Below are positions 5,088 to 20,860 of a DNA stretch of 64,000 bases, piece by piece (positions within the stretch are counted from its first letter, which is position 1; every line of letters starts with the position of its first letter). The notes under the pieces are model-generated. The model had not been told where the DNA came from and ran no database searches. It worked only from the letters and a program-made list of their open reading frames with translations. The position numbers and the translations under genes are program-made. Source of the stretch: an uncultured Planctomycetia bacterium (GTDB taxonomy: Bacteria > Omnitrophota > Gorgyraeia > VGKH01 > JBHPFN01); contig CAYOSQ010000004.1 of NCBI GenBank assembly GCA_964406665.1, positions 49,512-113,511 of the forward strand, in the 5' to 3' direction.

Positions 5088-6800
5088 CTAATCGATAAGA
5101 AGTTCTTCTTGTTGGGCAACGCGGATAACTTCTGATACTGTTGTTCGGCCCTGCCTTACTTTCTCCCAACCATCTTGAAGTAAAGTTCGCATTCCTGTTT
5201 CGATAGCCTTTTGTTTGATTTGATTTGCAGGAACTCTCTCTAATACCATACTGCGGATTTCTTCATTCATTACTAAAAATTCATATACTCCCGTCCTTCC
5301 TCTGAAGCCCGTAAACTTACATGCTTCACAACCTTTTCCTTCATAAAGCACTAAATTAGATATATCCACATTTTCAATTCCTAAATTTTTTATCATTTGT
5401 TCTTGCGGCTTGACCTCAGTCTTGCAACTTGGACAAATAAGCCTAACTAATCTCTGGGCAACAAAACAATCCACCGATGAAGAAATAAGATAAGACTCAA
5501 CACCCATATCCAAAAGACGGGCAATGGCACTTGCGGCATCATTCGTATGTAGTGTAGAAAAAACCAAATGACCGGTTAAGGCAACCCTGATAGTTATCTC
5601 TGCTGTTTCAAAATCACGTACTTCTCCAACCATCATAATATCAGGGTCATGACGTAACATAGATCTTAATCCTTGAGCAAAAGTAAGCCCAATGCGTGGA
5701 TGAATCTGTATCTGAGTTATTCCCAGAAGTTGATATTCGATAGGGTCTTCAATAGTAATAATCTTTTTCTCAGCCGTATTTATTTTTGATAGACAAGCAT
5801 AAAGCGAAGTTGTCTTTCCAGAACCAGTTGGCCCGGTTACAAATATTATGCCATGAGGTTTTTTTATCAAGGCATCCATTATCTTTAAATCTTCTTTACA
5901 TAATCCTAAATCACTTAAGCTATATAACATGGTTGGAGTTAATAACCTTATTACCACACTTTCTCCGTAAGCTGTAGGTATTACAGAAACTCTTAGATCC
6001 AAATCGTTATCACCTACTCGGACTTTTATGCGGCCGTCTTGAGGTAGGCGCCTCTCTGAAATATTAAGAGAAGACATAATTTTTATTCTGGAAATTATCG
6101 CAGACTGAAACTGTTTTATGGCAGGCGGAACCTTTGCATCATAAAGGATGCCGTCGATTCGATAACGAATCTTAAGCTGATTATCATGCGGTTCAATATG
6201 AATATCAGTTGCCCTATCTCGAAAAGCCTCGAGTAAAATTTGATTTACTAGTTTACCTACTGTAGCATCATTAGCAAGCTGTTCGATATCTTCGGTTTTA
6301 GATTTTGTAGTTGCCTCAACTCCATCTGCTGTATCCATCATCTTTTCAATTGTCTCAGCTCCAACTCCATAATACTGTCTGATTGACTCAACAATATCTT
6401 TTTCTCCTCCGATAGCTGCCTTAATTTTATACCCTAACAAAAGAGAGATATCATCTAAAACTGTAACATTAAGTGGATCAGTAACAACAATAGTCAAGAG
6501 ATCATTCTCATGCTGTATTGGCATTAATTTGTAGTGATAGGCAAATTTGGCGGGAACTTTTTTTTTTACTTCAGTGTTAACAGCTATTTCTTTAATTTTG
6601 ATATAATCAATATTTAACTGTTTAGAAAGTACCGGCAGGATATCTTCTTCAGTTGCAAAACCTAACTTGATTATTGACGTTCCTAAGAAATCACCGGTTT
6701 TTTTATGTTCCTCTACAGCAGCAACTAGTTCGTCTTCGGTGATTACTCCAGCATCCACCAGCATTCTACCAAGCAAAGTAACGGTCTTTTTCTCTACCAT
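5088..6800 (-). CDS. gspE: T2SS ATPase GspE with an N-terminal MshEN-like domain
   Basis: Walker A GPTGSGKTT, a GspE/PilB-type ATPase core, and a C-terminal CxxC...CxxC tetracysteine motif. The N-terminus (LLGRMLVDAGVITEDELVAAVEEHKKTG) resembles the MshEN c-di-GMP-binding motif. Confidence 0.85.
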   Translation of the reverse strand: MVEKKTVTLLGRMLVDAGVITEDELVAAVEEHKKTGDFLGTSIIKLGFATEEDILPVLSKQLNIDYIKIKEIAVNTEVKKKVPAKFAYHYKLMPIQHENDLLTIVVTDPLNVTVLDDISLLLGYKIKAAIGGEKDIVESIRQYYGVGAETIEKMMDTADGVEATTKSKTEDIEQLANDATVGKLVNQILLEAFRDRATDIHIEPHDNQLKIRYRIDGILYDAKVPPAIKQFQSAIISRIKIMSSLNISERRLPQDGRIKVRVGDNDLDLRVSVIPTAYGESVVIRLLTPTMLYSLSDLGLCKEDLKIMDALIKKPHGIIFVTGPTGSGKTTSLYACLSKINTAEKKIITIEDPIEYQLLGITQIQIHPRIGLTFAQGLRSMLRHDPDIMMVGEVRDFETAEITIRVALTGHLVFSTLHTNDAASAIARLLDMGVESYLISSSVDCFVAQRLVRLICPSCKTEVKPQEQMIKNLGIENVDISNLVLYEGKGCEACKFTGFRGRTGVYEFLVMNEEIRSMVLERVPANQIKQKAIETGMRTLLQDGWEKVRQGRTTVSEVIRVAQQEELLID

Positions 6801-6896
6801 GCAATCCCTTTTAATAAAAGACTCTACAGAATCAAAGCTAATTTCCGTTTTGATAAAATTATACTACAATAGCATTATTAAATCAAAAAAGCTTGG

Positions 6897-7000
6897 TGGA
6901 GGTGGCGGGAATCGTTCAAGCACGATTCCATCGTTATTTTCTCATGGAATCGAGTACTCCTTATTTTACATACTGAGTGCATATTTCCGCAACTCTCCGT
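6897..7000 (-). repeat. Repeat R1 (~100 nt); its first 18 nt (6897-6914) are identical to the 3' end of the tmRNA gene
   Basis: TGGAGGTGGCGGGAATCG is identical to 9441-9458. The rest of the element is ~80% similar to R2 (7743-7845) and not similar to ssrA. Confidence 0.6.
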
Positions 7001-7118
7001 TGAGAAATATATTACTATATTTCCGTCGGAAAGTCAACGCGCATGTTTCTTATCAAAAATATGGGGGATGACGCTAAAGCGTCATCCCCCTAATAGCAAA
7101 TGCCTCAACTCTTAAAAA

Positions 7119-7340
7119 TTACTTCTTAGAGCAAAAACATTTGCCGCATACACCAACATCTCCGCAACGGCATGCTTCTCCCTTGCAACATGCTCCCTCA
7201 CATTCACATTTACCACCTACGCAGCATGTACCATCTGAGCAGGCACACTTTGATTTCAAACAACATCCTGCCTCAACGGAAAATGCAAATCCCGAAAGCA
7301 TTAGAGATGCTATAACAAAGACAATAAGTAGTCTTTTCAT
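7119..7340 (-). CDS. secreted cysteine-rich (metallothionein-like) small protein, 73 aa
   Basis: Signal peptide MKRLLIVFVIASLMLSGFAFSVEA, then a 49-aa mature region with 16 Cys in CC/CxC/CxxC arrangements. Good RBS (AAGGAGA). Confidence 0.6.
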   Translation of the reverse strand: MKRLLIVFVIASLMLSGFAFSVEAGCCLKSKCACSDGTCCVGGKCECEGACCKGEACRCGDVGVCGKCFCSKK

Positions 7341-7399
7341 GGCTATTCTCCTTAAAATTAACTATTGTGTTTTAATTTAATTCTTAACCTAAACATCAA

Positions 7400-7702
7400 T
7401 TAGGAAAGCTTGGGTGGACGGAAGACTTGACGAGCAATATCTTTTTCGTAAGTAAAAATAAGCTGATAATAAAAACTGTCTTGTGTAATAATATTAGGAA
7501 AGGTTAAATCTGAAACAATAAATGGAATCGGCTGCCCAGATGAAGAGCATATCTGCCCGCTGCTTTCACAAGAACAATTATAGCAAGAACACTCATCTTC
7601 ACAGCATGAGATAGAAAGCTCAGCTACAGATAATCCTGTGGACCAAATCATAATAAAAGCAACTATAGCTATAATAATAAACTTTTTACCCATCGTTTTC
7701 AC
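7400..7702 (-). CDS. secreted cysteine-rich small protein, 100 aa
   Basis: Signal peptide followed by SISCCEDECSCYNCSCESSGQICSS (8 Cys). RBS AGGTGA. An extended -10 (TGTGTTATACT) lies immediately upstream on the minus strand at 7727-7737. Confidence 0.55.
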   Translation of the reverse strand: MKTMGKKFIIIAIVAFIMIWSTGLSVAELSISCCEDECSCYNCSCESSGQICSSSGQPIPFIVSDLTFPNIITQDSFYYQLIFTYEKDIARQVFRPPKLS

Positions 7703-7726
7703 CTATTCCACTTAAAGTATAACACA

Positions 7727-7737
7727 TTTATAAGAAT
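7727..7737 (-). promoter_or_regulatory. extended -10 promoter element (TGtGtTATACT) upstream of the 100-aa Cys-rich peptide gene
   Basis: Sequence motif located ~25 nt upstream of the start codon. Confidence 0.35.
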
Positions 7738-7742
7738 CTAAT

Positions 7743-7845
7743 GAAGGTGACGGTAATCGTTCGAGCGCGATTCCATCGTTATTTTCTCGCAAGGAATCGA
7801 GTACTCCCTATTTTACTTATTGAGTGCGTATTTCCGCAACTTTCG
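7743..7845 (-). repeat. Repeat R2, a second copy of the ~100-nt element with a degenerate ssrA-3'-like head (GAAGGTGACGGTAATCG)
   Basis: It aligns with R1 along the whole element. It contains the same alternative-pairing segments (CGATTCC / GGAATCG / CGATTaCC). Confidence 0.55.
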
Positions 7846-7882
7846 TCAATATACATCTCTCTAAATGATCACCTCAACCTGC

Positions 7883-9298
7883 TTACCTCTTCATCTTAAA
7901 CCAGTTAGTTGATAAAGCTATTTTTGCATCGTCAATCAATGTTTTATTTCTTAAACTGTTTTTAAGCTTACGCAGTATATATTTTGGATTCAAATATACT
8001 TCCTGATAAAACTTTCTGTAGTACTCTTCTATTGTAGGCCAAGATAACACTTGGTGGTTATAAATTTCTGACGGGGTAGAATGAAATTTAAACTTCTCCC
8101 AATCATAAGTTTTAATATTTTTTTCTCTGTCAAGTTCGTTAAACAGCTCAGTTGCCGGCAAGGGAATCGTAATATTTACTTTGGCCAGATCAAGATTAAG
8201 GCTCTTGGCAAAATTTATTGTCTGTCGCATTGTCTGCTCAGTCTCTCCCGGAAGACCGAACATAAAATATCCTACAGTTTCCAACCCTGCTTTTTTAGAC
8301 CAATCTACGGCGTTCTTTACTTGCTCTAAGGTTATTCCTTTTTTTACCCTTTTTAATATCTCTTGATTCCCTGATTCGATGCCGAAATAAACACGGTAAC
8401 AGCCTGCCTTCTTCATTTTCTGCAATAACTCAAGATCTACTCTATTAACACGAATCCCTGTAAATGTACTCCAGTCAATATTGATTTTATTCAAGATAAG
8501 TAAATCACATATTTCTTTCGCCCGCTGCATATCTGTGGTAAAGCTATCATCTACTATGAAGACTTCTTTAAAACCCAGCTTTTTAACTCTTACAAACTCT
8601 TTAAGAACTCTTTGGGGTGATTTGGTTCTAAAAGTACTGCCAAAACAATTCTTATTACAAAAAATACATTGATAAACACAGCCCCGAGACGTCTCCACCC
8701 AGGCTACGGGGTTTTTTCTAGCAACAGTGGATGCAACCCTGTATCTATTTATTTCGTAAAGACTATACTCTGGATAAGGCAAGACATCTAAGTCTTCTAT
8801 AAATTCTTTCCTTTCATTGACCACAATCTTGCCATTTTGTTTAAATGCTATTCCTTTTAAATCTGATAAATTTTTGCCTTCAACTATTTCCTGGATGACA
8901 AAATCACCTTCTCCGATAACCGCAATATCTGAGGAAGTCTCTTTTAGCGACGATTCCGGAAACGATGAAGCATGCGCACCCCCGATTACAATAATTATTT
9001 TTTCATTAATCTCTTTGATCTTCTGGGAAATTCTTGCTGCCTCTTTGATTAAAGGAGTTACAAAAGTAATCCCTACGAAATCTGGTTTAAATCTTTCTAG
9101 TATCTTGAAAAAATCTTCATCTTCGTAAATATTAAAATCGAATATCTCCACCTCGTGGCCTTTTTCCATTAAGCTTCCTGCTAAGCAAGCAAGGGCCAAC
9201 GAACAGGTCGACGGAGCGATCCCTTTTGTAATAGTCTTTTCGTAAAACCTCTCAAAGGGTAAATCTAACAGTAATATTCTTTTAGGTTTGAGCGTCAT
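7883..9298 (-). CDS. B12-binding domain radical SAM protein (class B rSAM)
   Basis: N-terminal cobalamin-binding-like domain and a CxxxCxxC motif (CVYQCIFC). It has no C-terminal SPASM-type Cys cluster. Confidence 0.75.
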   Translation of the reverse strand: MTLKPKRILLLDLPFERFYEKTITKGIAPSTCSLALACLAGSLMEKGHEVEIFDFNIYEDEDFFKILERFKPDFVGITFVTPLIKEAARISQKIKEINEKIIIVIGGAHASSFPESSLKETSSDIAVIGEGDFVIQEIVEGKNLSDLKGIAFKQNGKIVVNERKEFIEDLDVLPYPEYSLYEINRYRVASTVARKNPVAWVETSRGCVYQCIFCNKNCFGSTFRTKSPQRVLKEFVRVKKLGFKEVFIVDDSFTTDMQRAKEICDLLILNKINIDWSTFTGIRVNRVDLELLQKMKKAGCYRVYFGIESGNQEILKRVKKGITLEQVKNAVDWSKKAGLETVGYFMFGLPGETEQTMRQTINFAKSLNLDLAKVNITIPLPATELFNELDREKNIKTYDWEKFKFHSTPSEIYNHQVLSWPTIEEYYRKFYQEVYLNPKYILRKLKNSLRNKTLIDDAKIALSTNWFKMKR

Positions 9299-9440
9299 TT
9301 TATTTTCTGAATTAATACAATAGAATTACTCCTCTAAAACCAAAAGCAAAGTCCCGATTTAACTTCGAGAAAGAAGCATTTTGACGAAGAAGACTCGTTC
9401 CTGCAAAGCTCAAGACGAAAGTTCTTAAGCTAACTAAAAG

Positions 9441-9834
9441 TGGAGGTGGCGGGAATCGAACCCGCGTCCTTAGATTACGCAGCAAACGCCTCTACATGTT
9501 TAGTCTATATTCTGTTTGTCGTCTTGGCTCACTCCCATAGACAGGATTAAACCAAAACCAGCCTTTTAAATTTTCATCTTAAGCCCAAAGGCAAAACTCA
9601 AGACTATCCTGCCGTCCCCTCGCGGGGACGTGCACCAACTTAACCCGCAGGCAAGCTAAGCGATGGCCTTGTCTAATTTATGTTAGACTAGGACTTTTTC
9701 AGCCAAGATTTCCTCAGCTTCTGCAACTACGTTGTAGTCTGCATTTGTATTGTGCAAGGTGTTTAACGAGGCCTCCCTGCAACCTCGACATGCGTACACT
9801 TACCCGATAATCTAAATCGAACCCTTTCACCCCC
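9441..9834 (-). ncRNA. ssrA: tmRNA (ssrA)
   Basis: 3' end GGACGCGGGTTCGATTCCCGCCACCTCCA has a T-arm plus acceptor. 5' end GGGGGTGAAAGGGTTCGATTTAG pairs with the 3' acceptor strand. Directly downstream of smpB. A possible tag ORF reads GCA GAC TAC AAC...GTC TAA, giving (A)DYNVVAEAEEILAEKVLV (tentative). The exact 5' end is uncertain and may overlap the smpB stop codon by a few nt. Confidence 0.75.
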
Positions 9835-10279
9835 TTCTTCTTAAAGCACGTTTAACTTCTAAATCTACTTGTTTCTTTTTTAAATCTCGACGCTTATCAT
9901 ACAATCTTTTTCCCTTAACCAAAGCCAGCTCAACCTTTGCACGCCCATTTTTAAAATAAAGTTTAAGCGGCACCAGAGAAAGTCCTTTCTGCGATACTTT
10001 ATCCTCTAGGCGTTTAATTTCCTTTTTATGTAAAAGTAGCCTACGATTTCTTGTCGGCTCAAGATTAAAAAAGCTAGCTTCCAAATAAGGACTTATATGA
10101 ACATTATACAACCAAACTTCTGACGATTCAATTCTAGCAAAACTATCTTTTAAATTAGCCCGAGAATCTCTTAGAGATTTTACCTCCGGCCCCTTTAGCT
10201 CTATCCCGCATTCTAAAGACTCGATTATCGCATAATCCCTAAATGCGCTGCTATTTTTCGCGATAAGTTTCTCGCCCAT
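9827..10279 (-). CDS. smpB: SsrA-binding protein SmpB
   Basis: 150 aa with the SmpB signature region (...GIELKGPEVKSLR...LLHKKEI...) and adjacent to ssrA. Confidence 0.85.
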   Translation of the reverse strand: MGEKLIAKNSSAFRDYAIIESLECGIELKGPEVKSLRDSRANLKDSFARIESSEVWLYNVHISPYLEASFFNLEPTRNRRLLLHKKEIKRLEDKVSQKGLSLVPLKLYFKNGRAKVELALVKGKRLYDKRRDLKKKQVDLEVKRALRRRG

Positions 10280-11466: not shown

Positions 11467-11550
11467 GCCGAAGTGGTGAAACTGGCATACACGCAGCGTT
11501 CAGGGCGCTGTTCCTTTACGGGATTGTGGGTTCGACTCCCACCTTCGGCA
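11467..11550 (+). tRNA. tRNA-Leu (anticodon CAG), 84 nt with a long variable arm
   Basis: Hand-folded. Acceptor GCCGAAG/CTTCGGC, anticodon stem-loop CAGCG-TTCAGGG-CGCTG, long variable arm, T-arm GTGGG-TTCGACT-CCCAC. Similar to E. coli tRNA-Leu. Confidence 0.8.
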
Positions 11551-11626
11551 CTTAATTTACCTGTTCTCGTCAAGAAAACCTTCAACCTACCCTCCTTTTG
11601 GCAGTAGAATTGGCAGTATTTCTCCA

Positions 11627-12688
11627 TTAAAACTTTACATCCAACCCTAACTCTTTATCCATCTGCTCTACAATTCTATCGGTAGAATGCGTGTACCATT
11701 CATCGATTGTCCTCGGATCTTTGTGTCCGGTTATCTTAGCGATGTTGATAGAGCTATATCCTCTATCTTTTAGATAAGTAACAACGAAATGTCTGAGCAA
11801 ATGAGGATAATAATTGCGTGTAATACCAAGTTCTTTCATCGCTCTCTTGAGAATCTTGCGGATAGTATCTTTTCCGATGGAAATTCCTTTCAACCTGCCT
11901 TGGTCATCTTTAACTTTGCTCGGAAATAACCAACCAAAAGGACTGTAGAGCTTATGGCGCTTCAAGTAAAGGATATGCTCATTCAACACGATACAATCCA
12001 TCTTAGCCAGCTTCTTAACGCCTTCTTCTTTGTCTTTGTGCTTATATAGATATATTCGTTCATTATCCAATTCAACATCATTGATTTTGAGAGTTCTAAT
12101 TTCATTACGCCTACTTCCGAATCTCGCCATCAGATAGATATATGCGAAGTATTGAAACCTATTTGCTCTGATCCAATCCAATACTCTCATCATTTCATCT
12201 TTTGGTGGTGGTCGCTTTATCTTCTTTTCTAACTTAGGATATTTGACTTCAGAGAATGGATTCTTTACATTTCTAAAGCTGACTTTCCAAAACTCTCTCA
12301 GCAATCTAATAGAATACTTTGCTGTTGAAGGACTATAGCTCTGCAACATATGCTTCTTGAAATCCTCTCCAATCTCTTTTGTGATCCGGTGCAAAGGCAA
12401 TGCAGGATATTTCTTCTGCAAGAAAGCACTAAAGTATCTTTTAACATCGTTATATCGATCGGTTGAAGCAGGAGCGAGCGTCTTTCTGTTTACGAAAATA
12501 TCGAAACTCTCGAAGAAGGAGCTTTGCTTACTCATAGCGCACTCGCCTTCACGCTCAAGCTGTGCAGCGTATTCTTTGGCATCTTTCTTGCGTAAATAGT
12601 CTATTTTGCTGACAGTCGTTGAATGTTCTTTACCGTCAACGCGCCAACATATACGCCAACTCTTTTTTCTGTCAACTACCCAAGCCAT
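11627..12688 (-). CDS. int: tyrosine-type site-specific integrase
   Basis: 353 aa with a C-terminal catalytic region including the HLLRH...Y motif. It lies immediately next to the tRNA-Leu 3' end, in the orientation typical of island integrases. Confidence 0.85.
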   Translation of the reverse strand: MAWVVDRKKSWRICWRVDGKEHSTTVSKIDYLRKKDAKEYAAQLEREGECAMSKQSSFFESFDIFVNRKTLAPASTDRYNDVKRYFSAFLQKKYPALPLHRITKEIGEDFKKHMLQSYSPSTAKYSIRLLREFWKVSFRNVKNPFSEVKYPKLEKKIKRPPPKDEMMRVLDWIRANRFQYFAYIYLMARFGSRRNEIRTLKINDVELDNERIYLYKHKDKEEGVKKLAKMDCIVLNEHILYLKRHKLYSPFGWLFPSKVKDDQGRLKGISIGKDTIRKILKRAMKELGITRNYYPHLLRHFVVTYLKDRGYSSINIAKITGHKDPRTIDEWYTHSTDRIVEQMDKELGLDVKF

Positions 12689-12690
12689 AT

Positions 12691-12861
12691 TACTTGTGTC
12701 CGTTCTTTCTAAAGTCTTGAATTACTTTGTCAGGTTCATATCTCGGATGCTTGCCGATCATAATTGTATCGATCCTGCCTTGCCTTCTGTAGTAATCAAT
12801 AGTTGAGACAGGAATCTTGAGAAGTTTAGATAATTCGAATTTATCAACTAACTGTTTCATA
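12691..12861 (-). CDS. excisionase/AlpA-like HTH DNA-binding protein (56 aa)
   Basis: Hand-translated: MKQLVDKFELSKLLKIPVSTIDYYRRQGRIDTIMIGKHPRYEPDKVIQDFRKNGHK. It is below the ORF-track size cutoff and sits directly upstream of int. Coordinates may be off by 1-2 nt. Confidence 0.5.
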
Positions 12862-12979
12862 CTGGTCTACCTCCACTAAATACTCAGGTTTAGGATAATG
12901 CTTCTCCCATTTTTCTTTAACTGACTGCTTTGATCGTGGCGTATCAAATTCTTTAATCCGGATCGCTTCTTCGCCACGC

Positions 12980-13540
12980 TTAACGACGACCTTGCAATAC
13001 ACCGGCTTTCTCCCTGCTACGATCCCATCTACGGTAATAACCTGATTTTCTTCGCACCTTGCCATCTTTTTTGCCAAGAGGCCTGCCGAGCTTCTTGCCT
13101 TGGCTTCTCGCTCGCTGTAGGCCGGATTTGGTCCTCTCAATGATTCTCTTGCGCTCCTGCGCCGCTACCCAAGCATAGAAGGCAACCAGAACCTCTCCCA
13201 AGCCATCATCTGTAAAATCGAACATTGGCTCTTGCAGACTTTTAATACCTACCTTATTTCTTCTTATTCTTTTGATGTATCCCAAGGTATTAAACATACC
13301 TTCGCGAGAGAATCTGTCTAACGCCCATACAAGGATTAAATCAAACTTGCGCCTCTCTGCATCATGGAGCATGCGAAGAAAGTCTTTGCGATCTCCATTG
13401 CCTCCTGAAGCGTAATCAACATACTCATCAACGATTTCGCCCTGCAATGCATTTGCATAATCCCTTAGCGCTTGAAGCTGATTCTCAGGACTTTGGCTGC
13501 CGTTGTCCTTCGAAACACGACTATAAATTGCTATTTTCAT
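12980..13540 (-). CDS. serine recombinase (resolvase/invertase family)
   Basis: N-terminal catalytic domain MKIAIYSRVSKDNGSQSPENQ with the catalytic Ser. The C-terminus is basic and atypical, with no clear HTH. An ORF at 12844..13140 overlaps it in another frame. Confidence 0.7.
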   Translation of the reverse strand: MKIAIYSRVSKDNGSQSPENQLQALRDYANALQGEIVDEYVDYASGGNGDRKDFLRMLHDAERRKFDLILVWALDRFSREGMFNTLGYIKRIRRNKVGIKSLQEPMFDFTDDGLGEVLVAFYAWVAAQERKRIIERTKSGLQRARSQGKKLGRPLGKKDGKVRRKSGYYRRWDRSREKAGVLQGRR

Positions 13541-13554
13541 AATTACCTCCTTGC

Positions 13555-13761
13555 TTATGGAAATAAAGTTTTAGTATCCTGCTGCAAGATCTCAGCGACT
13601 TGCTGTCTTACAGCCGAGTTAGGAATTTCTTTGCCTGTCTCCCAATCAGAAACTGTCTTTTGCCCTACACCAAGCAGTCTACCGAGTTCCCATTGAGAAA
13701 GCCGTGCGCGCTTCCGGTACAGACTCAACATATTGTCGTATCGCTCGATTCTGTATTGCAT
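13555..13761 (-). CDS. Xre/Cro-CI family HTH transcriptional regulator (68 aa)
   Basis: HTH region LSQWELGRLLGVGQKTVSDWETG. It is divergent from the second Xre gene. Confidence 0.7.
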   Translation of the reverse strand: MQYRIERYDNMLSLYRKRARLSQWELGRLLGVGQKTVSDWETGKEIPNSAVRQQVAEILQQDTKTLFP

Positions 13762-13933
13762 CTGTTCCCTCCTTCTAATTTTATTTATTAGATTGCCAAG
13801 TTAAAAAATATATGCCCTTGCGCTTGTTCTTTCTTACCTACGAATGTAAGTATATACTACTTCAAAATAAAAGTCAAGTTTTATTTTTATCTTTTTTCTT
13901 GTATATGTAAGTAAGTATTGGTAAACTACTTCT

Positions 13934-14248
13934 ATGAGAACATCAAAATACCCAAAGAAAGCTGTAACGATCGGACAAAAGATTCGCAAAGCAAGGATGG
14001 ATCGGAAAAAAGATAAAGACCTGCTCGATGTTGCGAATAAAGTTGGCATAACCGAAAGCTATTTATCGCGGATTGAAGCAGATAAGAATTTGCCCTCAAT
14101 GGATGTTGCAGCGAAACTTGTCGAAGAACTCGGAATAAAGAAAGACGATATCATTCCTGAACTAATGCAAATTAAAATTGCTACCCTCTCAAAATCAACA
14201 GTCCACATCAACGCAAAGCATATCACTTTCAAAAAACCACGCGTCTAA
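13934..14248 (+). CDS. Xre family HTH transcriptional regulator (104 aa)
   Basis: HTH region LLDVANKVGITESYLSRIEADKNLPSMD. It forms a divergent pair with 13555..13761 across an intergenic region carrying TGTAAGTA repeats. Confidence 0.7.
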   Translation: MRTSKYPKKAVTIGQKIRKARMDRKKDKDLLDVANKVGITESYLSRIEADKNLPSMDVAAKLVEELGIKKDDIIPELMQIKIATLSKSTVHINAKHITFKKPRV

Positions 14249-14296
14249 AAGTTTACATCTTGCCAAACAGCCAAAACAGAGATAAAATAAGTCTTA

Positions 14297-14566
14297 ATGA
14301 AAACTCTCGTAGAAGGTGTCGATTTCGTCTACTTCTCCCCCTACCCTGCCTGCAAAGAGCCCTACAAAGTCGATCCCAAGGAAGTAAATCCGGTTTTCAA
14401 AGATATTTTGCATAAAGCATGGCTTGAGGCGGAAGCTCAGCTTCCCTCATGGGAGTTTCCTGAATACGATGTACCAATTTTACAGAAAAAGATCTTACAA
14501 GAACAATATGGGATCAGCTTGCGGACTGTTCATGAGCTAAATCCTGAGATGCCGGTAGGATATTAA
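14297..14566 (+). CDS. hypothetical protein (89 aa)
   Basis: Element cargo. No recognisable motif. Confidence 0.4.
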   Translation: MKTLVEGVDFVYFSPYPACKEPYKVDPKEVNPVFKDILHKAWLEAEAQLPSWEFPEYDVPILQKKILQEQYGISLRTVHELNPEMPVGY

Positions 14567-14576
14567 GGAGTCTTGC

Positions 14577-15005
14577 TTGAATATTAAATTCTTTAAAGCG
14601 TGTAATACCTGTAAGGCACGATATCTCCTATATCATCTCAAATCAGATTGTTTATTTGCCCAAGGAGTATTAAAACAGTTAGACGAAGTCAGTGAGAAAA
14701 CTGGACAAGAAATTGTTGACTCGACAAAAGATATGGATGCAAAGGCAACTTTTTTAGAATGGAGCAGATGGAAAAGTGCGCCATTCATAGTAATCACTTC
14801 AGCGTTTGCAATAGGAGTCCCCTTGCTTTGGGTGCAAAAACTTGAAGCGGTAGCTTGGATTCTTATAGTATTTTCAGTTATTTCCTTTATGCTTTACGCC
14901 ATCTTTCTTTCACAAGGTGGCTTCGACCAACTATATAAGCTACTCATTGTTAATGATATATCAAAAAGGGTAAATCCAACTAAACAAAATAAAAATGATG
15001 GCTGA
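14577..15005 (+). CDS. hypothetical membrane protein (142 aa, 2 predicted TM)
   Basis: N-terminal Cys-containing region and two hydrophobic helices. Confidence 0.45.
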   Translation: MNIKFFKACNTCKARYLLYHLKSDCLFAQGVLKQLDEVSEKTGQEIVDSTKDMDAKATFLEWSRWKSAPFIVITSAFAIGVPLLWVQKLEAVAWILIVFSVISFMLYAIFLSQGGFDQLYKLLIVNDISKRVNPTKQNKNDG

Positions 15006-15282
15006 GAGTATTTTATTTCTTTGGGGTCTTTATTATTTTGTCTGCAAGGTCGATTATAAACGCTTTAAAGATACTTGGGTAAATCTTCTTAAAGGCATAG
15101 GGTTTTTGTTGTGCGGAAAAGTAATGGGAATCTTCATGACTTCTCTCTATGCAGGTGGTGCGGATAGCTATAGGGTAGATATGGTTTTCGGCTTGCCATT
15201 ACTTATATGGACTATTGTAAAAGTAGCAAAGCTATTCAATGAAAGAGATGAGTTAAAAAGAAGTCGCAATAAGGAGAAATAA
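14995..15282 (+). CDS. hypothetical small membrane protein (95 aa)
   Basis: Hydrophobic segments; overlaps its neighbours in an operon-like arrangement. Confidence 0.4.
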   Translation: MMAESILFLWGLYYFVCKVDYKRFKDTWVNLLKGIGFLLCGKVMGIFMTSLYAGGADSYRVDMVFGLPLLIWTIVKVAKLFNERDELKRSRNKEK

Positions 15283-15283
15283 A

Positions 15284-15778
15284 ATGAGAAAACTATTACT
15301 TGTTTTAATGTGTTTGATGTTGGCTGGGTGTGCGAGTGGTCAAGTCGTAAAACTTTCGCCTGATACTTATATAATTTCACGCACCAGCTCAGCAGGAGCA
15401 TTCACGAATATGGCTCGGTTAAAAACCAGAGTTATTCAGGATGCAAATGATTTTGCCGAGAAACAAGACAAGGTTGCTATCCCCCTATCATACGATTGGC
15501 ATCGACCAGCTCAAGGATTTCCTACGGTTGAATATCAATTTAGGGTAGTAGATAAGGATGATCCTGAGGCAAAGCGAGCACATTTAGTCCCAAGACCTGA
15601 TATTACAATTCAAAGAGATGATTCAATTGATGCAGATATAGATATTGATATGAAAGATGTGACCGAAGAAAGCTCTGATCTTTATACAGAGTTAATGAAG
15701 TTAGATGATTTGAGAGCACGAGGTATTCTAACCGATAAGGAATTTCAAATCCAAAAAGAGAAATTGCTTAATAGATAA
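15284..15778 (+). CDS. lipoprotein with a C-terminal SHOCT-like domain
   Basis: Lipobox LMLAGCASG. The C-terminus LMKLDDLRARGILTDKEFQIQKEKLLNR matches the SHOCT short C-terminal motif. Confidence 0.55.
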   Translation: MRKLLLVLMCLMLAGCASGQVVKLSPDTYIISRTSSAGAFTNMARLKTRVIQDANDFAEKQDKVAIPLSYDWHRPAQGFPTVEYQFRVVDKDDPEAKRAHLVPRPDITIQRDDSIDADIDIDMKDVTEESSDLYTELMKLDDLRARGILTDKEFQIQKEKLLNR

Positions 15779-15789
15779 GGAGAAATGAA

Positions 15790-15960
15790 ATGAAAAAAGA
15801 AACGCTTTTACAGATTATATTATTGCTGGTAGTAAGCGGTATAATCTTTGTTATTGTCTACCCCAAATATGATATTGCCTGCACATATGGAACCTGCTTT
15901 AAGCTAAACAAATTTACTGGTAACTCAACCTATTACTTGCAAGGCGAGTGGCATAAATAA
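15790..15960 (+). CDS. small membrane protein (56 aa, below ORF-track cutoff)
   Basis: Hand-translated: MKKETLLQIILLLVVSGIIFVIVYPKYDIACTYGTCFKLNKFTGNSTYYLQGEWHK. Confidence 0.35.
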   Translation: MKKETLLQIILLLVVSGIIFVIVYPKYDIACTYGTCFKLNKFTGNSTYYLQGEWHK

Positions 15961-16106
15961 AATGCCAAGAGGCGTAAGAAACGATGAGCTTTGGGAAGCT
16001 TATAAGAAAACATTTGGCTGTGGTGATAAGGGCTTAACTTTCATCGTTGTTTTTATACTACTGCTTGGATTTATTTTAGTTGTTTTATTATAAGAAAGGA
16101 GTAATT

Positions 16107-16451
16107 ATGAAGTTATTAGTTGTTTTAATCTGTGTGTTGTTGATTGGACTTGCTGTTGCATTTGCTCAAAATCCTGTTATTGAAACCAGAAAATACTTAA
16201 ATCAAGAAACAGAAAGAATACACGAGAAAGCGAAGGGAATAGCAGAAGAATTAAAAAAGCAGATGGTTCCAATAGTAATAAGCACACAAGAAATTTCAGC
16301 AGGCGAGGTAATACAAGCAGAAATGCTTGAAACAGTAATGATTCATAAAAAGATTGAAGGAAGTTTTACTGCTCCTGAACAGGTTATAGGAAAACGAGCC
16401 ATTGTAGATATTAAAAAAGTTGTGCCCATTGAAGCTAAAAATATAGAATAA
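16107..16451 (+). CDS. secreted hypothetical protein (the start is probably the internal ATG at 16107 rather than 16080)
   Basis: RBS AAGGAG lies upstream of MKLLVVLICVLLIGLAVAFA, a signal peptide. Confidence 0.45.
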   Translation: MKLLVVLICVLLIGLAVAFAQNPVIETRKYLNQETERIHEKAKGIAEELKKQMVPIVISTQEISAGEVIQAEMLETVMIHKKIEGSFTAPEQVIGKRAIVDIKKVVPIEAKNIE

Positions 16452-16456
16452 ATTTA

Positions 16457-16490
16457 GGGCGACAGGTGCAAACTTAAAAACCCATCGCCC
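16457..16490. terminator. hairpin between convergent genes; weak bidirectional terminator candidate
   Basis: GGGCGA...TCGCCC stem; the U-tract is weak. Confidence 0.3.
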
Positions 16491-16543
16491 CTTGTGTAGA
16501 TAGATGCCGCTACCCACACTCCTCTGGTTAGGAACCTGAGAAA

Positions 16544-17275
16544 TTAAAGTTCTTTATCTAACTCTGCTTGCACTTTCTTATCAAACTCCCTAGAAGACTT
16601 ATTAGGTGATGATGATATAACCTTCTTAGGGATTCTAATATCCTCTCTAACTGTTTTATACCTATCTACAACAGGTTGGTTTTGCCTTTCCCTACGAGCC
16701 TTTTCTTCTTTAACAGCTTCTTTCATTGTCATTTCTTTTAAGGCAGCCATATCCCATTTCTTCCGTAGCTGGTCATTGACTCTTTGTCTTCTAGCATGAA
16801 CATCTGGATGGTCACCTTTATGTAGCTTATATCCTGCCATCTTGGAATAAGATTCCATTGTCGGATGCTCATCGTGCTCTGCTTGCAATCTATCTATTTC
16901 TCTTTGATGTTCTATATCAGTTGTATCAGAATATGGTAATCCAGCCGCTGATTCAGCTTCAGCTTGTTCCTCTACTTTTTTTAAAGCAGTCTCAAGCCTA
17001 CCATTTCTACGAAGGTCTTCTCCAAGTTTACGACCAATCTCTCTTGATTGCTTATAACCCTCATAATACTTTATAAGTTTATCAGTTAATTTTTTAGGAG
17101 CAGTGCCTTCTCTAACAGCATTTACAAGACTTGGATTTTCCGCAAACTCTTTATTCAATTCATGTTCAAGCGTTGCTACCTTATCTACTATCTTCCTACT
17201 TTCTTCATTATGATTTTTTGCAAGAAGCAATATTGCTCTGGTATATTTTTGTTCTTTAGTCCAAGTCATTTGCAA
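16544..17275 (-). CDS. hypothetical coiled-coil protein (243 aa; possible TTG start, internal ATG at 17267-17269)
   Basis: Charged, heptad-like sequence. Element cargo. Confidence 0.45.
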   Translation of the reverse strand: MQMTWTKEQKYTRAILLLAKNHNEESRKIVDKVATLEHELNKEFAENPSLVNAVREGTAPKKLTDKLIKYYEGYKQSREIGRKLGEDLRRNGRLETALKKVEEQAEAESAAGLPYSDTTDIEHQREIDRLQAEHDEHPTMESYSKMAGYKLHKGDHPDVHARRQRVNDQLRKKWDMAALKEMTMKEAVKEEKARRERQNQPVVDRYKTVREDIRIPKKVISSSPNKSSREFDKKVQAELDKEL

Positions 17276-17398
17276 TCACCCCAGACATCTTTCGTAGGTT
17301 CTGTATGATTTACCTTTGACAACATTTCTGCTGCATTGCTTGCCCAGCTTCTGTTATTACTTCGCTTTGGTTTTTGTTTCTTACCTTTACCTTTGCCT

Positions 17399-17821
17399 TT
17401 ACTCATCTTCAATTCTCCTTTCTACTTCTTCATTAAACTTCTCCATGGATTTTGGTGTTTTTATTTTTTTATTGAACCTTATATCATCTTCAGTTTCTTG
17501 TCGCTGGATATTCTTTTTAGCATCATATGCTTCACGAGCATCTCTTTCTTTCTTTTCTTTCTCTACCGTATCCTTCAAGTGCTTCTCTTTAAGATGCTTC
17601 ATATCTTGCTTCTGTTGTTCTTCCCTTTCCGACTGTTGTCTTTTAAAATATTCATCAACATCATCACCCTGCATAGCCTTTAAGACTTCTGCACCATCTT
17701 CCATATCGTGGGTTTCTTTGAACTTATCCAATGCTTCTTTAACATCAACTTGTTTTTCTTCAGGAGTTGATTCAGGTGAGACCTCTTTTCCTTCATCTTC
17801 CATCTTAATTCCCTCCTTCAA
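17399..17821 (-). CDS. hypothetical highly charged (E/K/D-rich) protein, 140 aa
   Basis: Extreme charge bias; roughly half the residues are E, D or K. Confidence 0.4.
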   Translation of the reverse strand: MKEGIKMEDEGKEVSPESTPEEKQVDVKEALDKFKETHDMEDGAEVLKAMQGDDVDEYFKRQQSEREEQQKQDMKHLKEKHLKDTVEKEKKERDAREAYDAKKNIQRQETEDDIRFNKKIKTPKSMEKFNEEVERRIEDE

Positions 17822-17833
17822 GGTTTTGTTTCA

Positions 17834-18043
17834 TCACGAGAACTTGCTGCCTTTGTGATGATATGAGCATATATTTGTTCCGTCAAAAACTGCTACTCCA
17901 CATTTGCCTGCATATCCTGTCTCAAATTGACACCACTTATACGGTTTCATGTCATTCGTATACTGAATCTGAGCGAACTCATTTAGATCTTCTTGAAGAT
18001 TATCATCAATTCTCCCTTCTGTTCTCGTTGTTGTTGTTTTCAT
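17834..18043 (-). CDS. hypothetical small protein with a Cys/His cluster (possible zinc ribbon)
   Basis: CQFETGYAGKCGVAVFDGTNICSYHH. Confidence 0.35.
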   Translation of the reverse strand: MKTTTTRTEGRIDDNLQEDLNEFAQIQYTNDMKPYKWCQFETGYAGKCGVAVFDGTNICSYHHKGSKFS

Positions 18044-18148
18044 GCCATTCCTCCTTCCTTTGATGAGTAAACAATCGTTCGATTGTTATGTACTGTCTTT
18101 CCTCGCGTAAAAACCTCTCGAAATAGAGGGGGAGGATTGTTTATCCAT

Positions 18149-18535
18149 TTATTTACTGTAAGTCCTCTTTTCAAGAATGACTCTTTCGACCTTTTCGAGT
18201 CTTTGCTCGATATTCTCGATCTCTCTGCTTTTTAGAACATATTCAATAATGCACTTAGAAGCTGAGAGCCGGACTTCTGCCCTTGGAGCTTTAATCAGCT
18301 CAATCAATTCGTCAACTGCCTGCGAAGCTGCCGACTTAAGCGTATTCAAGGCGCTATTAACAACAACATCGCGCTTAGACCGCAATTCCGCCTTGAATGC
18401 GTCATTCTTCAGCCACTTATGGAGAGTAGCTCTTGAGACGCTTGATCGCCTTGATGCTTCTTCAATCGAAGGAGAGGCAATTATATGAGCAATCGCCAAC
18501 AACTGCCTTCTCTTGATTTTTCTCTCTTTTTCCAT
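18149..18535 (-). CDS. HTH DNA-binding protein, possibly a terminase small subunit-like protein
   Basis: N-terminal HTH (SRRSSVSRATLHKWLKN) followed by a helical C-terminus, an organisation reminiscent of TerS proteins of phage satellites. Confidence 0.35.
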   Translation of the reverse strand: MEKERKIKRRQLLAIAHIIASPSIEEASRRSSVSRATLHKWLKNDAFKAELRSKRDVVVNSALNTLKSAASQAVDELIELIKAPRAEVRLSASKCIIEYVLKSREIENIEQRLEKVERVILEKRTYSK

Positions 18536-18559
18536 GTCATCCTCCTCAAATTGTCGATT

Positions 18560-18988
18560 TTATATCAATTCTGTCTCAATACCGGCAACACTATCAATAA
18601 TCGCCTGCATGTATTTGTCAAAATCCTTATCCTTTTTTCTGATTGTCTTAGTATCAACAGGATCGCCGATATTATATTCTTTCACTTTGCCATCAACCAT
18701 AATGGGCCGTAAGCGCATAAAAACTCGAGGTTCGTAGTCTTTTCCGTATCTCATCCTTAAACGCCTTAAAACGCCTTCTTTGTCCTGATCATCGTAGAAA
18801 CCGAGTTCCGGTGGCGCGTCTTGCAACCTTATCGTGCTTTCAACCTTCTTCAACCGTTTTCCTACAGACACAAAATACCTCCTTTTGTTTAGCCAATAAT
18901 CATGTTGCGGAAATCGTACACTCTTTATATATATGTGTACGATTGTACGATAATGATACAACCAACATCCACAGAGAGAAGCATTCAA
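18560..18988 (-). CDS. hypothetical protein (142 aa)
   Basis: Element cargo. No motif recognised. Confidence 0.35.
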   Translation of the reverse strand: MNASLCGCWLYHYRTIVHIYIKSVRFPQHDYWLNKRRYFVSVGKRLKKVESTIRLQDAPPELGFYDDQDKEGVLRRLRMRYGKDYEPRVFMRLRPIMVDGKVKEYNIGDPVDTKTIRKKDKDFDKYMQAIIDSVAGIETELI

Positions 18989-19081
18989 CGAAATGCTTCT
19001 TCTCTGAGTAGGTTTTGTGAGGAATAGTACTAACTACCTCTTTTGTACGACCGTACGATGCCTTCATTTTACGAACAAATA

Positions 19082-20128
19082 TCATGCACCCTCCCCTTTT
19101 GGTACATTGTTCGTCTCATCATACAGTTCTTCTAAACTACCCTTTTTCATCAACAAATGCGTCTTTCCAGTCTTGTTTACTTCAAAAAGCGTACTGTTTC
19201 GTATCAATTCCCTCAAAGTTGTACCACTACAGAGCTTGGTTTCCTTGGCCTTCTTGATCAATTCCGGAACAGCGACCTGATCCTTATCAAACTCCTCAAA
19301 CAACATCATAAGTGTTTCCTCGGTAAACTTCTTCTCGTAGTCTGTAATAAACTCGAACCATAGCGCATCGGTGTCAATCTTAGCGATGAATGGCGCAAAA
19401 CGCGCGCTGTTGCGACTTTTCTGGCAAGATACGGTAACACTACTGCTTGCGCCCTCAAGCGTGATGTGGCAGTCTAACCACGCTTCCCACTTATAGCTAC
19501 CGGCAGCCATCTGACCACCAGACCTATAATCCTTCGTTGATTTCCTCCAATGATGAACCACAAGAATAGCTACACCGAACCGTTCTATTAAAGTATTAAG
19601 ATATGCTGTTAATTTGCTGACCTGCTCTTTCTCATTCTCATTACCGAACCACGCATTGCCTAAAGGATCGATAATCAGCACATCTACTGCTAAATCAGCT
19701 AACCACCCTTCAAGCTGTTGCCTATCGGCTTCTTCTAAGAGATCTGCCGAAGGTAGATACTTAACATAGAGGTTATCTGCCGTAATGTTGTCTTTTGCGC
19801 ACATCTTCTGGAATCTCTCCTTCAAAGCAGACTCTCCCATCTCAAGATCAAGATATAAGACCTTTGCCGGTGCAATATCAAACTTGTCCAGTAACCTGCT
19901 TTGACCGGTAGCCATTGCCAACGCGCAGTTCTGGACAAAGATACTCTTGCCGATATTCGCTTGTGCTGAGATCATTCCCTTGCCTTTCTTCGGCAGTATG
20001 CCTGAAGCATAATACTCAATAGGCGGTATATCTCTGCTCATCAATTCCGGCAGCGTCATAGGTGGAGATTCTTTTTTCTCTTGAACAATCTCTAAATCTT
20101 TCTTGATCATAGTATCTACGCCATTCAT
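19082..20128 (-). CDS. AAA_25/RepA-like RecA-fold helicase (P4-type replication helicase)
   Basis: Walker A AQANIGKS, Walker B VLIIDPLGN, and LVVHHWRKS. Confidence 0.65.
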   Translation of the reverse strand: MNGVDTMIKKDLEIVQEKKESPPMTLPELMSRDIPPIEYYASGILPKKGKGMISAQANIGKSIFVQNCALAMATGQSRLLDKFDIAPAKVLYLDLEMGESALKERFQKMCAKDNITADNLYVKYLPSADLLEEADRQQLEGWLADLAVDVLIIDPLGNAWFGNENEKEQVSKLTAYLNTLIERFGVAILVVHHWRKSTKDYRSGGQMAAGSYKWEAWLDCHITLEGASSSVTVSCQKSRNSARFAPFIAKIDTDALWFEFITDYEKKFTEETLMMLFEEFDKDQVAVPELIKKAKETKLCSGTTLRELIRNSTLFEVNKTGKTHLLMKKGSLEELYDETNNVPKGEGA

Positions 20129-20129
20129 A

Positions 20130-20684
20130 TCATCCTCCTGCCAGTTGTGCGACTGCGGTCTTGAAATCGCAATCTTTTAATAGTTGCATAAAACTGATGG
20201 CATCCCCATGAACACCGCAGCCAAAGCAATGAAACTTGTTGTTCTCATCTATCATAAACGAAGCAGTTTTCTCTCCATGGAACGGACAGAGCGCATATTG
20301 ACGCTTACCGTTCCGGCGTAGCTTCTCAAAGCTATATATACTTGTAATAGGCGTTTGCTTGGCAATCTCTTTACTGCGCTCAAGATCATATGTCTTTTGC
20401 TTATACTGCTTATTAGATAAGAGCAACTGCAGGCGCTTGAGTCTTTTAAGTTGCTTGCGTGCCTCGTTAAATCTGCAGTCTAAGATGTCTATTACCTCAA
20501 GCCAAAACCACTTGGAGAATGGATCTTTTATCACAGCGATCTTCTTAACAAATGGCTGGATTTCCTCGACATAGCTCTTTTCTTTGACAACTAACCATTC
20601 TTTGATCTTCATAGGAACAATCTCTTTTGCTTCCGGAAAGATCTTGAGTAGCTCAATATCTGTTGGATAATTAGCGTAGTACAT
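20130..20684 (-). CDS. CHC2 zinc-finger (DnaG-type zinc-binding) domain protein
   Basis: C-terminal CPFHGEKTASFMIDENNKFHCFGCGVHGDAISFMQL is the canonical primase zinc-finger. No TOPRIM domain is visible. Its stop is 1 nt from the helicase start. Confidence 0.65.
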   Translation of the reverse strand: MYYANYPTDIELLKIFPEAKEIVPMKIKEWLVVKEKSYVEEIQPFVKKIAVIKDPFSKWFWLEVIDILDCRFNEARKQLKRLKRLQLLLSNKQYKQKTYDLERSKEIAKQTPITSIYSFEKLRRNGKRQYALCPFHGEKTASFMIDENNKFHCFGCGVHGDAISFMQLLKDCDFKTAVAQLAGG

Positions 20685-20845
20685 TGAATCAACTCCTTTG
20701 GCAGTAAAATGGCAGTAAAGTATACCAGAACCTGCTCTTTTTAGCTTTTTCTACTGCAAGGAATTTTAACTACTTTGAAGAATCTATAGACGAGAGATAC
20801 AAACTGCGGTATAATTGTGAAGCGTGTTGAAAGCATGGAGTTATT

Positions 20846-20860
20846 CTCCCACCTTCGGCA
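20846..20860 (+). repeat. attR-like 15-bp direct repeat of the tRNA-Leu 3' end (CTCCCACCTTCGGCA)
   Basis: Identical to 11536-11550. It marks the distal boundary of the integrated element. Confidence 0.7.

Follow-up and report, generated by a model that had tools for sequence, protein, structure and literature searches.

The 64-kb stretch of contig CAYOSQ010000004.1 analysed here (positions 49,512 to 113,511; hereafter, the window) carries a gene for a class-B, cobalamin (B12)-binding radical S-adenosylmethionine (rSAM) enzyme, followed by two small genes for Cys-rich proteins, at the 3' end of ssrA, the gene for transfer-messenger RNA (tmRNA). A sequence-only reading of this DNA had described a single repeat-bounded island of about 2.5 kb, in which the enzyme and the peptides might form a peptide-modifying pair of the kind that yields ribosomally synthesized and post-translationally modified peptides (RiPPs). 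The view that the DNA is inserted and bounded by attachment (att) sites stands, but the segment is made of two islets in tandem, as a third copy of the repeat at 7741-7759 and a pair of homologous arms had been overlooked. We think, with a probability of roughly 0.7, that both islets are integrase-less relics resembling cis-mobilizable elements (CIMEs) that accreted at ssrA with unrelated cargos, and that these cargos do not constitute a biosynthetic pair.

The 18-mer TGGAGGTGGCGGGAATCG, which had been reported as a direct repeat of the tmRNA 3' end, is real. The window has two copies of it and no more, both on one strand (6897-6914 and 9441-9458), while 100 shuffles gave an expectation of 0 matches. 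The true extent of the identity is 19 nt (GTGGAGGTGGCGGGAATCG, 6896-6914 and 9440-9458; CGATTCCCGCCACCTCCAC when read in tmRNA orientation), the proximal copy being the last 19 nt of the tmRNA gene. The repeat begins inside the T-loop, at its third base, and takes in 5 nt of this loop, the 3' strands of the T-stem and of the acceptor, the discriminator A and a single C. A third, degraded copy (core B) matches at 15 of 19 positions and separates the rSAM gene from the two small ones; in tmRNA orientation, its four differences are one C-to-A and three C-to-T changes. Three copies of the tmRNA 3' end are present in register, with 19/19, 15/19 and 19/19 matches on going away from ssrA.

Each of the two distal cores is preceded, on its islet side, by an arm of about 105-125 nt, and both arms are homologous: in a pairwise alignment of 6897-7020 with 7742-7866, 103 of 123 positions are identical (~84%), the identity being 87-89% over the first ~104 nt. 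The arm blocks CGATTCCATCGTTATTTTCTC and GGAATCGAGTACTCC are absent elsewhere in the window and, arms aside, the stretches of DNA between the core copies bear no relation to each other. The region of arm B overlaps the last nucleotides downstream of the rSAM stop codon, and arm A carries CGATTCC, GGAATCG and CGATTCC motifs, that is, direct and inverted ones. An attC-like or RNA structure in the arm was considered and rejected. Compared with shuffled sequence, folding on the minus strand is not significantly better for either copy (z = -1.7 and +0.2), and on the plus strand it is better for copy A alone, so that three of the four strand/copy combinations fold no better than shuffled sequence.

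The 3' ends of the two perfect cores tell which one is the original. The working ssrA gene ends with ...CCTCCAC followed by TTTT, so that it encodes only part of CCA; at the distal copy the sequence is ...CCTCCACCA AGCTTTTTTGA, where a complete CCA precedes a T-run. In a comparison of 3' ends, three of five relatives (L102, L011 and L032) also encode CCA. Because it keeps the encoded CCA that is missing from the working gene, we take the distal copy for the displaced original end of ssrA, which is the picture expected of a site-specific integration. Just past the distal CCA and T-run comes a promoter-like TTGATT-17-TATAAT (6886-6858) and then the gene of a gspE/pilB-type ATPase (5088-6800), followed by gspF and gspG. 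In tmRNA orientation, the complete layout is ssrA with its core, islet 1, arm B with core B, islet 2, arm A with core A and CCA, the gspE promoter-like site and gspE (Table 1). An empty site would read as the tmRNA body joined directly to ...CCACCAAGCTTTTTTG (9459 to 6895).

Table 1. Location and basis of assignment of the features at and around ssrA in the window.
Feature	Position	Strand	Basis
Chromosomal flank: promoter-like site and gspE/pilB-type ATPase gene	5088..6886	-	NCBIfam/Pfam and promoter scan
Distal att: arm A (6915-7020), core A (6896-6914, 19/19), encoded CCA (6893-6895)	6893..7020	-	Repeat search, alignment, 3'-end comparison
Islet 2 (0.83 kb): ~40-nt proximal stretch, two small genes, terminator, arm A	6915..7740	-	Bounded by core B and core A
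Strong intrinsic terminator closing the two-gene unit: 12-bp stem with 9 GC pairs, then ATATTTTTGA	7063..7090	-	Consensus scan and sequence
Gene for 73-aa protein with Sec-type signal peptide	7119..7340	-	Open reading frame (ORF) list; homologs beside 97-aa family gene
Gene for 97/100-aa protein, predicted to be exported or N-terminally anchored	7400..7702	-	ORF list; phmmer family
Internal att scar: core B (7741-7759) and arm B	7741..7866	-	Repeat search and pairwise alignment
Islet 1 (1.68 kb): 141-nt proximal non-coding stretch, rSAM gene, arm B	7760..9439	-	Cores at 9440-9458 and 7741-7759
Class-B (B12-binding) rSAM gene, 471 aa, intact	7883..9298	-	Pfam PF02310 and PF04055
Terminator-like hairpin and T-run within islet 1, just downstream of tmRNA	9352..9370	-	Consensus scan, pattern match only
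ssrA (tmRNA), full length	9438..9834	-	ARAGORN (9440-9834); Rfam RF00023 (164.7 bits, model 1-374/374)
smpB	9827..10279	-	NCBIfam SmpB, 196 bits vs cut-off 130
9.3-kb integrative element at tRNA-Leu(cag)	11467-20860		tRNA (11467-11551) and perfect 15-nt repeat

In the 141 nt scanned between the tmRNA and the start of the rSAM gene of islet 1, neither a Shine-Dalgarno sequence nor a promoter-like site is visible. The gene product matches PF02310 (E = 1.4e-20) and PF04055 (E = 7e-28), which places it in the class-B superfamily, and the CxxxCxxC motif reads CVYQCIFC. No NCBIfam model is reached at its cut-off. The best of them, HpnJ, gives 233.1 bits against a cut-off of 577.6, and BchE gives 181.9 against 481.35. 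By these scores the enzyme belongs to neither of the two housekeeping subfamilies, which the sequence-only reading had given as examples of an assignment that would refute it. There are thousands of homologs (about 2,400); the closest ones cover 97-99% of the 471-aa form and, with 63-68% identity, belong to Nitrospirota, DPANN archaea and unlabelled metagenomes. The closest named ones reach 63-67% (Nitrospirota and DPANN archaea), and the best named Omnitrophota match 48%.

The genomic context of the enzyme was surveyed for four close homologs (P0004, P0009, P0015 and P0031), which gave seven distinct contexts. Wherever upstream sequence exists, the homolog comes directly after the gene of a 237-aa family 2 glycosyltransferase (GT2), sometimes with overlapping stop and start codons. 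The surrounding clusters hold GT1, GT2 and GT9 glycosyltransferases, PMT_2-type GT-C enzymes, sugar epimerases, dehydratases and MBOAT/AlgX genes, and STT3 once. The co-occurrence with Cys-rich peptides proposed for this subfamily did not appear, since no Cys-rich peptide gene stands beside the homologs in any of the seven contexts. The GT2 partners resemble AglJ, ArnC, PpgS and dolichyl-phosphate hexose transferases, all of them under the curated cut-offs. No GT2 partner or GT2 fragment is present upstream of the rSAM gene or anywhere in the window. As far as sequence comparison goes, the enzyme belongs to an unnamed glycan-associated family distinct from HpnJ and BchE, and the copy in islet 1 would be an orphaned version of a glycan-pathway enzyme that acts on a lipid-linked sugar.

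Known class-B rSAM enzymes that act on sugars offer a useful comparison. In the synthesis of the hopanoid cyclitol ether, HpnJ is paired with the glycosyltransferase HpnI; AprD4, a close structural relative, is the second-best match of our enzyme in the PDB by sequence. Common to them is a B12-binding domain joined to a radical SAM core, and the homologs of our enzyme are always paired with a glycosyltransferase gene. However, besides the low HpnJ score, the partner of the homologs is the 237-aa GT2 and not HpnI, and the window copy is partnerless. The conserved GT2/B12-rSAM gene pair can be seen in loci L003-L010 (for example, L004, 5291-7392), within glycan clusters of Nitrospirota, Pacearchaeota/Nanoarchaeota and bacteria of the Candidate Phyla Radiation (CPR). 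It is about 65% identical across domains, and no NCBIfam model names the rSAM family. Our literature search found no paper on such a pair, which we think deserves attention as an unnamed and widely transferred unit, shared by the glycan clusters of bacteria (Nitrospirota and CPR) and of DPANN archaea. One member of the rSAM family, P0018 (813 aa), holds an intein-type LAGLIDADG domain (PF14528). The window enzyme also matches the PADLOC candidate defence protein PDC-M51A (64.9 bits, E = 1.4e-18), probably by generic class-B rSAM similarity.

Islet 2 is a compact two-gene unit. Its proximal stretch holds an extended -10-like TGTTATACT, and both small ORFs encode a signal sequence with N-terminal K/R, a hydrophobic stretch and an AxA-like site. 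The start of the 100-aa ORF is most likely the ATG at 7693, which gives 97 aa, as it is preceded by an AGGTGA Shine-Dalgarno sequence and corresponds to the invariant Met of the alignment. The 97-aa protein consists of a signal-like helix, a Cys-rich block (CCEDECSCYNCSCESSGQIC), a conserved QP and a C-terminal R..F.PP motif. The 73-aa gene has an AAGGAG Shine-Dalgarno sequence, and predicted cleavage of its product near VEA|G leaves a mature part of 49 aa with 15 Cys, arranged as CCx4CxC three times and then CxCxKK. The earlier counts of 16 and 8 cysteines for the two proteins were each one too high; we count 15 and 7.

A phmmer search with the 100-aa ORF against 1.84 billion representative proteins gave seven relatives, with E values from 9e-9 to 3e-4. 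Across this family the Cys-rich block has the consensus CHQxCDCCxxSCxCQxQxC, QP is invariant, and both the signal-like N-terminus and the C-terminal R..F.PP motif are shared. The 73-aa protein found only itself in a word-indexed protein search, and its homologs surfaced through read-through gene calls beside the 97-aa family. Two of the 97-aa relatives in the protein set are calls that read through a TGA, and their second halves are homologs of the 73-aa protein. These fused calls of 181-208 aa (L104, 837-1433; P0246 and P0249) read the TGA stop as Trp, an annotation artefact of alternative-code calling on short contigs; in the DNA of L104, L105 and L106 the two genes are separate, 43 nt apart. 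The adjacent pair of a 97-aa family gene and a 69-aa Cys-rich gene is found in L104, L105, L106 and P0249. Four small-peptide sequences, with homologs from L104, L105 and P0249 among them, align with 14 invariant Cys columns (CCx4CxC three times and then CxCxKK) after a signal cleavage site of the AF(A/S)|G type. On the L104, L105 and L106 contigs (1.5-3.3 kb) no rSAM gene is seen near the pair, whose neighbours are ParB-HTH/KilA-N-like genes (L104) and V4R-like, DUF6868 and NTPase_1 genes (L105). The two small genes are, by their conservation, a two-gene module of a rare family.

Neither small protein matches a family in Pfam, NCBIfam, PHROGs, PADLOC or the PDB, where the Cys-rich peptide gave composition-level matches only (E >= 0.049), and no match to these proteins or to the DNA of the islets came from collections of plasmids and phages. 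For the 100-aa protein, AlphaFold2 gave an unusable model, with a predicted local distance difference test (pLDDT) score of 53.8 and no structure predicted but the N-terminal helix. Cys, placed in CC/CxC motifs, makes up 31% of the mature peptide, which is also rich in Gly, Lys and Glu and has a single aromatic residue (Phe). Such a composition would suit a thiolate peptide of the metallothionein type better than one knotted by disulfides. The likeness to metallothioneins, both bacterial (SmtA/BmtA) and eukaryotic, lies in the Cys-rich CC/CxC motifs, the scarcity of aromatics and the invariant Cys positions among homologs. Differences are the lack of a match to any metallothionein family of Pfam or NCBIfam (E <= 1 or 0.01), the predicted Sec signal of the 73-aa peptide and its constant pairing with another predicted exported protein that is rich in Cys. 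Among bacterial metallothioneins, SmtA/BmtA and MymT are known as cytoplasmic proteins, and to our knowledge no exported metallothionein-like protein has been described in bacteria. A metal-handling role is possible for the Cys-rich peptides. In such a case, this rare module for exported and extremely Cys-rich proteins would provide exported metallothionein-like proteins.

The arrangement can be explained if two related integrative elements recombined with the segment of ssrA that goes from the T-loop to the 3' end. Each integration would have swapped the gene end for the element's own copy and pushed the earlier end outward. Later on, the elements would have decayed to cargo, distal arm and cores, with the arm of ~105-125 nt as the only shared backbone left. 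Islet 1 would then carry an orphan B12 rSAM enzyme that elsewhere is the partner of a small GT2, similar to polyprenyl-phosphate sugar transferases, in envelope-glycan pathways, and which may modify a lipid-linked sugar. Islet 2 would carry a compact unit, equipped with a promoter-like site, ribosome-binding sites and a terminator of its own, for two predicted Sec-exported Cys-rich proteins, most likely a thiolate-rich, metallothionein-like periplasmic peptide and a Cys-rich partner.

Judged as islands of tRNA or tmRNA genes, the islets have an intact tmRNA at one boundary and a direct repeat of its 3' end at the other, while an integrase gene and an atypical base composition are missing. Judged as CIMEs in accretion, they have cores at both ends of each islet, a tandem order with an internal att and no integration or transfer genes. 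The latter agrees with the ORF and Pfam analyses, by which the only credible genes between the repeats are, as had been stated, the rSAM gene and the two small genes with signal sequences, with neither transfer genes nor a recombinase within the islets.

Several observations weigh against this explanation. There is no integrase or integrase fragment between the repeats, as the sequence-only reading had also noticed, and all the integrases of the window belong to another island, at tRNA-Leu. The GC content of the islets (0.362 and 0.369) is not atypical compared with the window mean of 0.364. No empty-site strain or relative was found in the scans of genome representatives and metagenomes; among the contigs listed with identical SmpB, every one that reaches past ssrA carries the rSAM gene, and both islets are present wherever the contig is of sufficient length. 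The four mismatches of the inner core, next to a perfect outer one, are not accounted for by a simple history of two steps; either the composite would have to move as one unit or the inner core would be the element's own variant. The contigs that show the peptide pair without the rSAM gene are short (1.5-3.3 kb). Finally, the window, IMG/VR and the metagenome scan gave no parent element with these arms.

Regarding this last point, a 21-mer of the arm has 0 matches in IMG/VR, and the 18 matches of a 19-mer in a single metagenome scan are all seed-only chance matches with no adjoining tmRNA core. BLAST against phages gave no parent element either, and the arms are seen only in contigs of the same species. 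The 19-nt core itself is present exactly in 110 IMG/VR contigs (L107-L186 among them). Forty of these core-bearing contigs were checked: 19 have a tmRNA gene (of phage or host), in many cases a permuted one, and 21 do not, and the core copies of the latter may be att fragments. None of the contigs checked carries the islet arms.

Tandem islands at ssrA are known from Dehalococcoides, where they are bounded by 20-bp repeats, inserted in the T-loop and provided with extra conserved sequence beside each repeat, some of them lacking an integration module and having been proposed to be CIMEs (McMurdie et al. 2011; PMC3146451). The islets described here resemble them in their head-to-tail order downstream of ssrA, in the conserved sequence next to the repeats and in the existence of units without an integration module. 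However, they are only two, of 0.8 and 1.7 kb instead of many kb, and neither has an integration module; the Dehalococcoides islands use the serine recombinase DsiB. In addition, they belong to Omnitrophota and have no reductive dehalogenases as cargo. CIMEs have lost the integration and transfer genes and kept attL and attR; at the 3' end of their target gene they adjoin related elements in a tandem array, an att site being left inside it (PMC5704250, reviewing Pavlovic 2004 and Bellanger 2011). The islets share all these traits, that is, att at both ends, tandem order, internal att and no integration or transfer genes, but no partner element with a matching integrase was found, and their descent from integrative and conjugative or integrative and mobilizable elements is putative. 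We think that the ssrA islets are an ordinary kind of feature that carries a small unnamed protein family, and that the accretion arrays at tmRNA genes known from Dehalococcoides occur in miniature in Omnitrophota too.

Among other explanations is a RiPP-like module, in which the B12 rSAM enzyme would methylate the Cys-rich peptides, or modify them in some other way, prior to their export. In its favour, the three genes stand side by side in one orientation, and some class-B rSAM enzymes are indeed RiPP C-methyltransferases; yet the weak matches to such a model, TIGR03975 (125 bits, cut-off 281.85), and to ApyD (149 bits, cut-off 750) reflect shared domains, and all the RiPP rSAM models score far under their own cut-offs. 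The hidden Markov model searches that had been proposed for RiPP rSAM subfamilies gave no model at cut-off, and Pfam finds PF02310 and PF04055 only, with no RiPP recognition element (RRE)/PqqD or SPASM domain. Moreover, the peptides have predicted Sec signal peptides and not leader peptides, and no protease or transporter gene accompanies them. The pairing is unsupported because in other genomes the two partners keep different and consistent neighbours (GT2 and glycan clusters for all the rSAM homologs surveyed; no rSAM gene with the peptide pair on the short contigs L104, L105 and L106) and because a degraded att scar separates them here. The homolog contexts have already largely refuted it, and we regard it as the least probable of all the explanations. 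Hardly more credible is an ancestral, non-mobile gene order, with copies of the ssrA 3' end and its adjoining sequence produced by local duplication. The host-like GC, the lack of an integrase and the fixation of the arrangement in all sampled contigs would agree with it, but the repeats start exactly in the T-loop and stop at the tmRNA 3' end, which is the canonical att segment of tRNA and tmRNA genes, and the distal copy keeps CCA and is directly followed by the original T-run and the gspE promoter. Duplication would not yield unrelated cargo between the duplicated ends either, and the higher identity of the rSAM enzyme to homologs from Nitrospirota and DPANN archaea than to the Omnitrophota one suggests acquisition.

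Another explanation is that each unit is a self-contained minimal cassette, inserted and excised at ssrA by a recombinase encoded elsewhere, loosely like integron cassettes or CIMEs mobilised in trans. The units are compact, with proximal sides of ~40 and 141 nt and co-oriented cargos; they share only the terminal site, with its direct and inverted CGATTCC motifs, and the outer cores are perfect. Against this, there are only two units in one clonal population, no recombinase is linked to them, the arms of the tRNA-Leu island are unrelated, the arm was found in no other organism and its folding is not significant on the minus strand and holds for copy A only on the plus strand. Beyond compactness, we found no evidence in favour of the cassettes, which we consider unlikely. 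A true integron cassette array was rejected, as there is no intI near the array and the arm is not attC-like in three of the four strand/copy combinations. A combined version, by which the two small genes define a new and rare family of Sec-exported metallothionein-like proteins (a periplasmic thiolate metal sponge and its partner) spread as a minimal ssrA-targeting att cassette by a recombinase acting in trans, is conceivable, although we find it doubtful. By the accretion of two islets that we favour, the rSAM enzyme and the peptides are probably neighbours by accretion and not a working pair. The result is then mostly a clean negative: an attractive neighbourhood of rSAM and Cys-rich genes consists of unrelated cargos joined by successive insertions at ssrA. 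In our opinion, it calls for caution in the mining of RiPPs on adjacency alone.

The history of the slot between ssrA and gspE was approached through relatives. SmpB homologs place the host in Candidatus Omnitrophota; the nearest species-level genome representative has an SmpB only 61% identical, and the metagenomic relatives examined have 70-81%. The order tRNA-Leu, Mem_trans, smpB and ssrA, with smpB directly upstream of ssrA, is kept in the Omnitrophota relatives compared (L098, L011, L032, L101 and L102). In L101 (SmpB 70%), smpB-ssrA is followed by 3.1 kb of other genes, namely a pilin-like gene, a CNNM/CBS gene and a 63-aa ORF, and then by gspE-gspF-gspG, which indicates that the neighbourhood of ssrA and gspEFG is older than the islets and that the content of the slot is variable. 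L098, L099 and L102 are rearranged, with other genes downstream or no ssrA beside smpB, and neither they nor L101 show a downstream repeat of their own tmRNA end. The comparison with related genomes that had been suggested gave a mixed outcome: L101 does not have the same three genes in the slot, but ssrA directly before gspE was found in no relative. Contigs with an identical SmpB were also read (19 read, 8 places listed). Same-species contigs are at least 99.7% identical, and the presence of the arrangement in independent assemblies from several samples implies that it is not an assembly artefact.

The tRNA-Leu island, 2 kb away, serves as a control within the window and indicates that this genome takes up elements that target tRNA or tmRNA genes. 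Its repeat, CTCCCACCTTCGGCA, a perfect 15-nt copy of the tRNA 3' end, is found at 11536-11550 and 20846-20860, and GGCAGTA-type repeats lie near both ends. It has a tyrosine integrase (11627-12688) at the tRNA end, a MerR-like excisionase candidate and a resolvase, besides helix-turn-helix regulators, a SHOCT protein, an AAA_25 gene (19082-20128) and a CHC2 primase zinc-finger gene (20130-20684). In L098 and L099, tRNA-Leu directly adjoins rpmA with no island between them, and contig L001 departs from the window beyond 16494, so that part of the element varies between strains. A link between the ssrA islets and this island was rejected, as the arm alignments score at or under shuffled sequence.

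Other observations concern the tmRNA gene and its surroundings. The tag peptides predicted by ARAGORN for the tmRNAs of the window, L098, L101 and L102, such as AEAEEILAEKVLV and ASEIAEAERIVAPAFEKVLVG, are unusual and lack the customary ...ALAA end; they are either atypical tags or mispredicted reading frames. In L099 (969-1895; SmpB 80% identical), smpB is followed by tRNA-Leu and rpmA, and ARAGORN and Rfam detect no tmRNA gene. The 3' ends of the tmRNA and tRNA-Leu of the window form a 26-nt inverted repeat with 77% complementarity (9438-9463 and 11528-11553), which could mediate a rearrangement like that of L099.

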